Source: a virus
Lineage: Duplodnaviria; Heunggongvirae; Uroviricota; Caudoviricetes
Length of the DNA stretch: 4,076 nucleotides
Reading direction: 5' to 3' (one strand)
IMG/VR virus record: IMGVR_UViG_2654587728_000011
Coordinates: 1-4,076 of that record
Part shown: one piece after another, positions 1-4,076 of the stretch
Numbering within the stretch: the stretch's first letter is position 1
How the letters are laid out: every line of letters begins with the position of its first letter
Position numbers and translations under genes: made by a program
Notes under the pieces: generated by a model
Databases searched by the model: none
Seen by the model: the letters and a program-made list of their open reading frames with translations, nothing else
Told to the model about the DNA's origin: nothing

Positions 1-331
1 TCTCCCCCGGGTCGCCCTTCGGTCCCTGAGGTCCGGTTGCCCCCACCGGGCCAGCCGCACCTGTTTCTCCTTTCGGTCCCTGTGGGCCTGCCGGGCCTGC
101 CGCACCGGTATCTCCCTTTGGACCCTGTGGACCTGCATTTCCCGTCAGACCGGTCTCTCCCCGCTCTCCCCTGTCACCTTTCGGCCCCTGCGGGCCTGCC
201 GGACCAGCATCACCTGCCGGTCCCCGTTCGCCGGTTGCCCCGACAGGGCCGGTGTCACCGCGCTCTCCCTTATCACCCTTCGGCCCCTGAGGACCCGCGG
301 GCCCCTGTTCCCCCTTTGGCCCGGGAGGTCC
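1..331 (-). repeat. Collagen-like Gly-X-Y triplet-repeat region inside stf (continues beyond window)
   Basis: Minus-strand translation from codon 331 downward reads [110 protein letters not shown], with Gly at every third position and no interruption to the window edge. The 273-aa Pro/Leu-rich plus-strand track ORF 37..858 is the antisense reading of this tract. Confidence 0.85.
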
Positions 332-1081
332 CACCACGGTGGGGATTCGGTTTACGGCGTCTTCCGCCGCTATCCTGCTTTGTTCCGCTGACTGTGCGCT
401 TTCTGCTGACTCCCGGGCTTTTTCTGCTGCGGTCGTTGCATCCCTGGATGCATTACCGGCTGCACTTTCTGCCGTCTTTCTTGACAATTCAGCTTCTGCT
501 GCACTTTGTGATGACTCACTGGCTTTTTGAGCGGCCGCAGAAGCCGAGGACGAGGACGCATCCTCTGACTGCTTTGCTGAGGCTGCACTTTCCGTCGCCT
601 GCCGGGCTGACTCCGATGCATCCCCTGCAGAAGTCTCAGCATTTACTGCACTCTTTTCCGCCTGGCCGGCTGATATACCCGCATTCCTCGCTGACGTCTC
701 TGCCTCTCCGGCATTCTTCTTCGCCTCCTCAGCGTGACGCGCTGCCTCTTCCACCATCTGTTCAAAACGACGCAGTGCCTCCGGACGGACATCATCCTCC
801 GTCATGGCACCGAGAAAATCATTCAGCGTACCCGGCTGAGAATCTTCATACACGGTGATGGTCCCGGCATGTGACGGCGGGAACCCCTCCACCAACAGAA
901 TAACGCTGTACTGACCGTACTCAACGTCCATACTGTAACGCCCGGCTTCATCCGGATTTTCTGAGGCCAGCGTGTTCACCACCACAGTGGTACTGTTACG
1001 TTTTGCTTTCAGCTGGATTGTGCAGTTCTGTACCGGTTTTCCTGTGCCGTCTTTCAGTACACCTGAAATCTTTACTGCCAT
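1..1081 (-). CDS. stf: Side tail fibre protein, lambda Stf-like; N-terminal ~360 codons, 3' end lies beyond the left window edge
   Basis: Minus-strand ATG at 1081..1079 preceded by a G-rich Shine-Dalgarno-like GGGGTG (1085..1090). I hand-translated the frame from 1081 to 841 and from 61 to 1 and found no stop; the absence of any track ORF starting at 1081 is consistent with the frame staying open to the window edge. N-terminus [90 protein letters not shown] is, by recollection, near-identical to the lambda Stf tail-attachment domain. It is followed by an Ala/Ser/Glu-rich segment and a Gly-X-Y tract. Position directly downstream of lom matches the lambda J-lom-stf order. Confidence 0.85.
340..750 (-). 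repeat. Ala/Ser/Glu-rich degenerate repeat (low-complexity, probably coiled-coil shaft) region inside stf
   Basis: Translation reads ...[125 protein letters not shown]. The plus strand shows the motif ctgcacttt at 462-470, 499-507 and 585-593, encoding the recurring (K/E)SA unit. Confidence 0.6.
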
Positions 1082-1090
1082 ATTCACCCC

Positions 1091-1119
1091 ACAAAAAAGC
1101 CCGCCTGAACCGGCGGGCT
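1091..1119 (-). terminator. Rho-independent terminator downstream of lom, upstream of stf
   Basis: Perfect 7-bp all-GC stem, plus gcccgcc (1099-1105) pairing with ggcgggc (1112-1118), 6-nt loop 1106-1111. The plus-strand A-run 1093-1098 gives a UUUUUU tract immediately 3' of the hairpin on the minus-strand transcript. It sits 27 nt after the lom stop. Confidence 0.7.
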
Positions 1120-1145
1120 GTCATAACACTGTGTTACCTGGCTAA

Positions 1146-1745
1146 TCAGAATTTATAACCGACACCCACGATGAAACCGTCAGTGCGCCAGTCACCACTG
1201 CCGGAGCCTTCATAAGCAATATCAATGGCCACGGACTCGGTCGGGTTAAACTGCACGCCAGCCCCCCACGCCAGAGACGTGTTGCTGTGGCAACCGTCAT
1301 CACTTCCGGTCAGCACATCGTGCGTTTTCCCCTTGTTGTCAGTTACGCGAAGATAATCCCCGGAGAAAGTCGACACACGGCTGTAAGCCACACCCGCCAT
1401 CGCATACGCGCTGAACCATTCATTCACGCGCACAGACGGCCCCGCCATCACGCTGAACCAGCGGTTACGCACGGAATCTTCATGCCAGCGGGTATCGCTG
1501 TAACGGGTAAGCTGGCGATTCTTGTCTCCTGCATAGCTGAATGACGTCACCAGCCCCAGCGTGTCCGTAAATTCATAACGGTATTTCACGTTAATCCCGT
1601 TCAGATCATCGCTGCCGGGAACGTTCGTCGGGGCATGAAGATACCCCGCGCTCAGTGTGGACTGATGTTCAGATGCCCATGCAGGCGCACCGGATACGGC
1701 CAGACAGATGGCTGCGGACAAAATGGCAGCACAAAATTTACGCAT
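1146..1745 (-). CDS. lom: Lom, Ail/Lom-family outer-membrane beta-barrel protein (lysogenic-conversion moron)
   Basis: 199-aa ORF with ATG at 1745..1743. N-terminal signal-peptide-like sequence [25 protein letters not shown]-terminal half ...[11 protein letters not shown]...[43 protein letters not shown] matches, by recollection, the lambda Lom C-terminus, ending in the aromatic residue typical of outer-membrane beta-barrels. Sits between J and stf as in lambda. Confidence 0.9.
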
Positions 1746-1766: not shown

Positions 1767-1793
1767 AATAAAAAAGGCACCATTTCTGGTGCC
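1767..1793 (-). terminator. Rho-independent terminator immediately downstream of the J stop, upstream of lom
   Basis: 7-bp stem, plus ggcacca (1776-1782) pairing with tggtgcc (1787-1793), 4-nt loop 1783-1786 that reads GAAA (GNRA-type) on the minus-strand RNA. Plus-strand A-run 1770-1775 gives UUUUUUAUU 3' of the hairpin on the minus-strand transcript. Lies 22 nt after the J stop codon (1815-1817). Confidence 0.7.
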
Positions 1794-1814
1794 CTTATAT
1801 GGGTTATAACAATT

Positions 1815-3227
1815 TCAACGAATACTGATGCCGGAAGCGGCTTTTTTGGTCACAATCACCGTACAGTCGGTGATATTACCTGCCCACTGATTGCCTTTAT
1901 GGAAAACCTTAAACTCCAGAGTGACGCTTCCCCTGCCACTCGGCATATCAATAACCGCACTGTAGCTACCGGGAATGGCCCCTTTAGTTTCTCTGGATGC
2001 GATTAATACACCGTTTTTGCGAACTTCAAAACCATAACCCGTGTAACTTGTACCTCCCGGGTTATTACCACTTCCCGGATAGCTATACGCTATTCCGTTA
2101 AAGATAATGGGCGGAATAATGATTTGACGGTCAAAGTTATGATCATCGCTGATGGTGACTGTAACCGTCCCGTTTGGTGTTTCCGTGTTACCCCACGTAC
2201 CAGCCTGTTTCGGGAATGATTTGGATACAGCTTTAACGAAGTCACCTCTGACCTGAGTCGCCTCCAGCATGCCCTTAATCGTACAGTTTTCATTTACCGT
2301 GACATTGTTGAGCGTCCCGGCGTTCGCATTCACACTGCCACTGATATCCGCATTTTTAGCGGTCAGCTTTCCGTCCGGAGTCAGGGAAAATGCCGGTGGA
2401 TTTCCACCGCTGGTAATGGTGGGGGCCGTCAGGCGTTTCAGGAACACGTCGTTCATGAATATCTGATCGCCCTGCCCAACAAACATCGGCTTTGTGTTGC
2501 CATTCGCAGGATTAATCATCGCAATCCTGTCCGCCGCCAGCAGCACCTGACTCTGCATGCCGTCAGGGGTGTTCTCAATACCGGCCCCGATACCCGCAAT
2601 ATAAAGGCGTCCGTCCTGCATCTGCTGCAGCTTCACTGCCCACATGCTGTTCAGGTTATTATTTGTATCAACCTGAACCTTCTGTATCTGCTGGATTGCC
2701 GCACTCTGGTCTTCCAGTTTCTTATTGACAGTCTGCGTGATTTCATTGCTGACATCCGTAATGGACGTCCTGATTTCAGCCAGGTCAGGCGCAAGCTGAC
2801 CGTTATCAATCTGCGTCCACAGCTCCTGAGCCAGATGGGTTTTCCCTATCTCGCCTTTGAAAAAATCCAGGTAACCTTCCGCATCATCGCTCGCCTGACC
2901 GACAGCCTCCACGAATGCCGATTTGCCAACGGTGTTCACACTGCGGATATAAAAGTAATAATCATGGCCCGGTTTGATATTGATACTGGCGGCTATCCAG
3001 TACAGCCCCGTGCCAAGATAGCGGGCTGTGGTTTCAACCTGCCTGATATCGGTAATCCGCTTTTCCGAGAACCAGAACTCAAACTGTACCGTCGGATCAT
3101 AAACCGCAAGATGCGGCGTGGCGGTTATCTGAAAATACCCCGGTATCAGCTCAATCAGTGACAGGCGCTGCCGGTGCCGCAATCCGGAACGATACCGACG
3201 CCGGATCACCCTGCTGCCCCCACGCAT
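1815..3227 (-). CDS. J: gpJ-like host-specificity protein, fragment 3 of 3 (frame C; C-terminal part including the receptor-binding end)
   Basis: 470-aa track ORF. The first ~22 residues ([22 protein letters not shown]) are out-of-frame read-through; gpJ homology begins at [34 protein letters not shown] (about 3161) and runs to ...[15 protein letters not shown], stop at 1817..1815. Confidence 0.85.
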
Positions 3228-3744
3228 TTACCGCCCGGACTGTCAGCCTGTAACGCCCCAACGCCAGCTGCCTGAAGCGGTATGTGGTTTCCGTCGTCCG
3301 GGCCGTGCTGACCAGCCGCTCACTGCCGTCATCCGCTGCCACGGTCAGGCGAAGCAGAAAGCTCACCCCCTTCACCACCTTCGGCGTGTCCCAGCGCGCC
3401 AGCACCTGATATTCCCCACTGTCTGCGGTGACTTCGGCGGTCAGGTGCTGCACCGCTGGCGGCGTGACACCATTCACCGTGCCGCTCTGGTCGCCGTCAA
3501 AGTGCGCCCCGTTATCCACGATGGCCTCTTTCTCCGGCACATGCTGCACAGCAGTGATGGCATACGTGCCGTCATCGTTCTCACGGATACTCACACAGCG
3601 GAACAGGCGCTGACGCAACGTCGGCAACTTCAGCCCCCACACGCTGTATTCGGCAACGCCGTCAGGAACCCGGTTCACTTTCACCTTAAGTCCGTCGGTG
3701 ACGGACTGAACCTCCACGCTCACCGGATTACCACTGCCCGTCAA
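3151..3744 (-). CDS. J: gpJ-like host-specificity protein, fragment 2 of 3 (frame B; fibronectin-III-like central region)
   Basis: Track ORF beginning at a TTG. The homologous part reads [81 protein letters not shown]...[30 protein letters not shown], then runs into out-of-frame VTD* with TGA at 3153..3151. Confidence 0.8.
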
Positions 3745-4076
3745 CCAGGCTTATCAGCGTGGTACCGGAGGATGGCAGCGTGATTTCACGGTCGAGCGTC
3801 AGCGTCCGGGTCTGGCTGTTCACCGCCAGCACGCGCCCGCCGGTGCTGATACCGGCATAGTCATCATCGCAGATTTCAATGACATCGCCCGGTACATGGC
3901 GAAGCCCTTCAGCACCCACGCTGAAGTCCACGGTCTGCGTTTCCAGCAGTTCTGTTTTAATCAGCCACAGCCCGGCGCGGTGTGCCTGCCCCCGACTGGT
4001 ACAGCCAAAGGCATCCATCTTCGTGACGTTACGACCGTAACGGGCAATGGCCTGCGTGTCCTCCACAAGCTCTGTT
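3728..4076 (-). CDS. J: gpJ-like host-specificity protein, fragment 1 of 3 (frame A; enters from beyond the window, ends at a frameshift-induced stop)
   Basis: Frame is open from the window edge at 4076 (TELVEDTQ...) down to TAA at 3730..3728. The track start at 4066 is an internal GTG, not a true start. Ends ...[14 protein letters not shown], while the lambda-like continuation SGNPVSV is in the next frame. Confidence 0.8.
   Translation of the reverse strand, partial: TELVEDTQAIARYGRNVTKMDAFGCTSRGQAHRAGLWLIKTELLETQTVDFSVGAEGLRHVPGDVIEICDDDYAGISTGGRVLAVNSQTRTLTLDREITLPSSGTTLISLVDGQW

Follow-up and report, generated by a model that had tools for sequence, protein, structure and literature searches.

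The minus strand of the window, from position 1081 down to position 1, almost certainly carries the opening 82% of a side tail fibre gene of the EPclA type, a modular stf from a lambdoid (cdtI/434/Stx1-phage-like) E. coli prophage. By the window we mean the whole stretch of 4,076 nucleotides that was analysed, which is an entire 4076-bp draft contig (JHRJ01000114.1, assembly GCA_001267345.1) in reverse orientation. This contig was the one record retrieved when the Lom protein encoded in the window was looked up by exact sequence. Because the window is the whole contig, stf is truncated by a draft-assembly boundary and not by biology; the assembly stopped in sequence common to several prophages, hence the cut gene. 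The architecture itself is already known: it was described and characterised in 2012, and E. coli prophages commonly carry it. The stf of the window is an ordinary member of a published, biophysically characterised and very common protein type. The coordinates of the recognisable features are collected in the table below.

Features recognised in the 4,076-nucleotide window, with the evidence for each
Feature	Position	Strand	Evidence or remarks
5' part of side tail fibre gene (stf, EPclA type)	1..1081	-	Open frame; PF08400 and PF01391; PHROG; relatives
PfN / collar domain, aa 1-133	683..1081	-	PF08400; tail attachment of the fibre
PCoil segment, aa 134-250, Ala/Ser/Glu-rich, low complexity	332..682	-	Composition; predicted trimeric alpha-helical coiled coil
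Collagen-like (Gly-X-Y)n domain	1..331	-	36 whole triplets (331..8) and a truncated 37th (7..1)
Terminator-like hairpin between lom and stf	1098..1119	-	8-bp stem, 7 GC pairs, T-run
lom, encoding an Ail/Lom outer-membrane beta-barrel; placed between J and stf as in lambda	1146..1745	-	PF06316, E 1e-120, full length
Terminator-like hairpin after J	1773..1796	-	Sequence
J, 3' two-thirds, tail-tip gene, in three reading frames	1815..4076	-	PF13550, PF24421, PF24489, PF09327 and PF12421 on three ORFs

Translation from a minus-strand ATG at 1081 (1081..1079) gives a single open frame of 360 codons that runs to the window edge, and the coding part seen, 1081..2, corresponds to the first 360 residues of Stf. 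The frame is intact throughout these visible codons. Pfam placed PF08400 (phage_tail_N, prophage tail fibre N-terminal) on residues 1-133 with an E-value of 2.3e-69 (232 bits; cut-off 26.6), and the match covers positions 1-133 of the 134 in the profile. Two PHROG tail-fibre families, phrog_3279 (E 1e-135) and phrog_366, were also matched. The segment that follows, residues 134-250, is 117 residues long by the boundaries used here and contains 35 Ala, 24 Ser and 14 Glu; the PCoil of EPclA was reported by Ghosh et al. in 2012 to be 32% Ala, 19% Ser and 13% Glu (PMC3368898). In the same study (PLoS One 7:e37872; PMC3368898), EPclA is a protein of 437 residues made up of a PfN domain (PF08400), a PCoil of 116 residues, a Col domain of 111 residues and a PfC domain (PF06820). 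Of the features by which the type is recognised, PfN, a PCoil of about 116 residues and a single unbroken Col domain are seen in the visible part of Stf.

The Gly-X-Y run begins at residue 251 (nt 331) and continues unbroken to residue 358 (nt 8), for a total of 36 complete triplets. Two more residues, Gly and Glu, and a single base of the codon after them (nt 7..1) come next, which leaves the 37th triplet incomplete. An earlier sequence-only reading of this DNA had counted at least 37 uninterrupted triplets, which was right about the unbroken run from nt 331 and one too many for whole triplets. The triplets it singled out as common are indeed so (GPK 6, GPQ 5, GPA 4, GER 3 and GET 2 in our census), and half of the X positions (18/36) are occupied by Pro. 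It had also named a collagen profile search as a possible refuter, and that search returned the Pfam Collagen family PF01391 at 65 bits against a gathering cut-off of 27.2 (E 5e-18). Chance does not account for the run: at the Gly frequency of 0.056 outside the tract, 36 Gly in register would arise with a probability of about 1e-45, and reshuffling the 360 residues 10,000 times gave Gly-X-Y runs of at most 7. The DNA is 71% GC at positions 1-331 vs 56% in the rest of the window. The strand and frame of the tract are settled, since it lies in frame with the PF08400 domain (E 2e-69).

Relatives of the gene are abundant. At least 80% of window positions 1-1200 was present in 708 of 5426 complete E. 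coli genomes, among which the best DNA identity over that interval (99.2%) was found in E. coli DCE7. The same threshold was reached in 141 phage records, including cdtI (98.5%), 2851, VT1-Sakai, BP-4795, Lambda_2B8 and 434. Phages 434 and Lambda_2B8 are isolates carrying the same fibre, the latter obtained by prophage induction, and the related genome and phage records that we retrieved annotate the minus-strand frame as a tail fibre CDS. At the protein level, the 360 residues differ at a single position from the 437-residue DCE7 protein WP_072132910.1 (99.7% identity), and residues 1-133 are identical to it. The visible collagen, residues 251-360, is 100% identical in DCE7, VT1-Sakai H0004 and phage 2B8. 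From the Sakai, 434 and 2B8 copies, the protein of the window diverges by 4-5% of residues in PfN and by 7-9% in PCoil. The closest relatives belong to the cdtI type of prophage and not to the Stx prophages, and the prophage of the window is probably of the cdtI-phage type.

The full-length stf products of DCE7, 434, VT1-Sakai and 2B8 are all 437 residues long, with Gly-X-Y at 251-361 as 37 triplets ending in ...GDPGET; cdtI, also among the closest full-length relatives, has 437 residues and exactly 37 triplets. Since the close full-length relatives all stop at triplet 37, the collagen tract of the window most probably runs only 2 nt beyond the contig end before it gives way to a 76-residue PF06820 C-terminal domain. 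In the relatives, the 76-residue tail after the collagen matches PF06820 (Phage_fiber_C; residues 363-426 in DCE7, E 3.5e-36), and the earlier placement of a distal domain outside the window agrees with this. The same reading had the tract itself continuing off the window, which is not borne out by these proteins beyond those 2 nt. The leftward extension that it proposed finds no more sequence in this record, as the contig ends at nt 1. A full-length Col of 111 residues for this stf is read only from the relatives and not from the window, and its PfC domain (PF06820) and stop codon are likewise predicted from them.

Triplet number was compared among related prophages, as the sequence-only reading had proposed, and proved to be mostly 37. 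In a first pass through IMG/VR, 18 of 24 intact EPclA-type genes had 37 triplets, three had 27, two had 38 and one had 36. Loci missed there were covered in a second pass, which brought in three further genes of 37 triplets and one of 30. EPclB-type genes, also recovered in the second pass, carried 32+20 and 38 triplets, and their N-terminus was another one (VSVVVSG...). Within the collagen-coding DNA, window positions 6-304 contain direct repeats that are imperfect and spaced 99 nt and 45 nt apart. Together with the series of 27, 30, 36, 37 and 38 triplets, these repeats fit length change by unequal recombination, and they are a plausible basis of the triplet-number variants in related prophages. 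A further proposal, that the tract is a preferred recombination joint at which co-resident prophages swap C-terminal tips or stalk length, so that an undescribed tip or an odd triplet number might be encountered here, is one to which we give very little credence.

All recognisable genes of the window are on the minus strand, in the canonical lambda tail-fibre order J-lom-stf. Compared with the J of phage 434, that of the window has one extra base near 3163 and another near 3736, which split it into three frames, and alignment to the DCE7 J over the same stretch also showed two gaps. These frameshifts indicate either a tail-defective prophage or draft sequencing errors, and they do not change the identity of the stf sequence. 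Phage 434 has terminators annotated at positions matching both of the hairpins listed in the table, which are strong ones, and lom thus seems to be terminated on its own, apart from J and stf, in line with the annotation of that phage. The J gene of DCE7 (L001 8142-10757) is interrupted by an IS66-family element, unlike the window's frameshifts.

Comparison with lambda shows how much of the fibre is shared. The Stf of (Ur-)lambda (P03764; orf-401 plus orf-314 in lambda PaPa) is encoded in the same slot after J and lom, and orf-401/Stf aligns nearly residue for residue over the first ~115 residues, with 59% identity across residues 1-251. This agrees with the lambda-like Stf N-terminus that had been noticed from the sequence. 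The Ala/Ser-rich proximal coiled-coil region of lambda Stf aligns with the PCoil of the window, and the similarity fades there. Beyond it, lambda Stf has a hinge, a gp37-like distal domain and an OmpC-binding tip, followed by tfa (orf-194), whereas the EPclA type has a collagen stalk and a 76-residue PfC in place of the distal parts, with a PfC paralogue as the next gene. Only the N-terminal third is common to the Stf of the window and that of lambda. No Gly-X-Y run longer than 3 triplets occurs in any forward frame of the lambda stf region, which upholds the earlier statement that lambda Stf does not have a strict tract of this kind. The Pf2 repeats and gp37-like distal region of the strict lambda Stf family are absent from the 360 visible residues, and the relatives go directly from collagen to PfC, with a PF06820 paralogue as the next gene where that family has Tfa.

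In IMG/VR, the PF08400-type N-terminus also heads non-collagen, lambda-like fibres of 900-1150 residues that end in ...NIAFNYIVRLA. This occurrence of the same N-terminus on collagen and non-collagen fibres confirms that the family is mosaic, and the description of this stf as a mosaic variant, with the N-terminus of lambda Stf and a collagen shaft instead of its distal parts, is well founded. The structural counterpart of the shared domain is known. In the cryo-EM structure of Ur-lambda, Stf residues 1-94 form the collar domain (PMC12617516; PDB 9E7M, 9MGH), and twelve copies round the gpV/gpM junction give rise to four trimeric fibres, which speed adsorption via OmpC (PMC12617516). Residues 1-94 of the DCE7 Stf match the Ur-lambda Stf collar chain 9e7m_Ta at an E-value of 9.6e-53.

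EPclA itself (ECs2717, ECs2941, Z0982) is the closest characterised system. The window shares its domain order and domain sizes, with Col starting from residue 251, and differs in that PfC is observed there whereas the gene of the window stops at the contig end before it. VT1-Sakai is the Stx1 prophage of O157:H7 Sakai, and its tail fibre, H0004, is, we infer, ECs2941 of prophage Sp15. An O157:H7 genome carries many copies of EPclA; the collagen part ranges over 63-144 residues among the variants, and several copies have lost their frame (PMC3368898). Recombinant EPclA is a trimer by AUC/MALLS, with PCoil and PfC as trimerisation modules (PMC3368898). Its Col-PfC part gave a collagen-type CD spectrum, a Tm of 42 °C and fast refolding, and the whole protein has the shape of a hinged dumbbell ~55-62 nm long (PMC3368898). 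The triple helix was demonstrated on a recombinant EPclA closest to ECs2717, a protein distinct from that of the window. The trimer state, triple helix and overall shape that we expect for it are accordingly those of the EPclA literature, set beside a frame, domains, triplet count and identity with relatives that were established here.

Collagen-like proteins outside the EPclA type help to place the fibre. The EPclB-type fibres of short-tailed Stx2 phages (933W L0121/Z1483, Sp5 ORF67/ECs1228, phi24B gp61) have closely related collagen tracts and the same PfC, but the copies recovered carry another N-terminal sequence, suited to a podovirus tail. Immuno-EM and cryo-EM show EPclB-type proteins to be structural components of the tail fibre, and in phage Sp5 immuno-EM located ORF67 at the end of the tail. 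A preprint on phi24B describes the same collagen shaft, with a close relative in phage 2B8. As to the receptor of EPclA-type fibres, the only statement found in the literature was that the lateral fibres of 2B8 do not recognise BamA. Scl1 and Scl2 of S. pyogenes and BclA of B. anthracis also have a (Gly-X-Y)n triple helix without hydroxyproline that is nucleated by a globular trimerisation domain, and the parallel with Scl2 is made by Ghosh et al. (PMC3368898). Those proteins are on the cell or spore surface and have signal or anchor sequences, in contrast to the protein of the window, a virion fibre with a phage collar. When the full-length DCE7 relative was compared with PDB sequences, BclA was among the matches, and vertebrate collagen chains were matched at E-values of 1e-59 to 1e-71.

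By analogy with these systems, a working model of the fibre can be proposed. The N-terminal beta-sandwich collar, close to that of the Ur-lambda Stf, would anchor the fibre to the tail where gpV meets gpM, and the Ala/Ser/Glu segment would form a trimeric coiled coil. The 37 triplets would fold into a collagen triple helix of ~32 nm (111 residues × 0.286 nm), giving a stalk that is thin and semi-flexible and joins the coiled coil at a hinge. PfC, encoded off the contig, would trimerise, nucleate folding of the triple helix from the C-terminus and presumably bear the receptor contact. As suggested by the side fibres of Ur-lambda and T5, the fibre may speed or widen the initial, reversible adsorption, with J making the essential receptor contact.

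We lean, with some hesitation, against the idea that this stf is a relic in a defective prophage, whose fibre is not built into particles as J is broken. That idea is compatible with the EPclA identity, and it draws on the two 1-nt insertions in J, on the VT1-Sakai J, which is likewise annotated as truncated by mutation, and on the frame-lost EPclA copies listed by Ghosh et al. (PMC3368898). On the other hand, the stf frame is intact over 360 codons and one residue away from an intact relative, and both J indels could be draft errors. Another architecture past the contig end, whether a longer collagen, a second Col of the EPclB type or some other C-terminal module of the EPclC/D type, is very unlikely. 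Triplet numbers do vary among the relatives, EPclB-type genes depart from 37, EPclC and EPclD have different C-termini, and the contig breaks off practically at the Col/PfC junction. Against this, residues 251-360 are identical to those of three 437-residue proteins, the closest relative in DNA shows 99.2% identity across positions 1-1200, and the EPclB-type genes recovered start differently.

A role in the bacterium rather than in the virion, such as a surface adhesin for host matrix or cells like streptococcal Scl, seems to us highly improbable. Ghosh et al. leave the role for E. coli itself open, and other bacterial collagen-like proteins are adhesins (PMC3368898); the adjoining lom is a gene for an Ail/Lom-family outer-membrane protein, and in relatives genes for T3SS effectors lie downstream. 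However, no signal peptide is evident at the Stf N-terminus, where the domain is instead the tail-collar domain resolved on Ur-lambda virions. The gene also occupies the stf slot of the tail module, and the related ORF67 was localised to phage tail ends. That the tract is not coding on the minus strand at all, being either a GC-rich simple repeat or part of a real plus-strand gene, is next to impossible. A plus-strand ORF of 273 residues (37..858) does span the region, and four of the six frames have at most one stop codon over positions 1-333, but the minus frame is continuous with PF08400 and scores as Collagen, and related records annotate it as a tail fibre CDS. The scarcity of stops in the other frames is expected of DNA rich in GGN and CCN; we rejected the plus-strand ORF and the other antisense ORFs as by-products of such stop-poor DNA.

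Beyond annotation, the finding matters little: a truncated ORF at a contig end can now be labelled an EPclA-type side tail fibre. The window adds no leverage on the binding of the PfC tip or on the small PfC paralogue, since that part of the locus is absent. Draft assemblies tend to break in the collagen repeat, which is multi-copy and GC-rich and appears to be what breaks short-read assemblies here. Another draft contig in IMG/VR (L031) halts at the start of the collagen tract.

A lambda-type tfa had been expected after stf, and the relatives have a different gene in that place. In both DCE7 (L001 5497-5766) and phage 434 (L002 5497-5766), stf is followed by a gene for an 89-residue paralogue of the fibre's own C-terminal domain, which matches PF06820 at an E-value of 1e-34 and is 37% identical to the Stf tail (E 4e-14). 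The phage 434 record labels this paralogue an assembly chaperone and gives no supporting note; the protein may be a chaperone, a cap or an alternative tip. Farther downstream of stf, DCE7 carries the virulence cargo cdtABC, cif and nleH (L001 105-5390), and phage 434 carries NleC-like genes together with fragments annotated as similar to NleH1 and NleB (L002 2119-4278).
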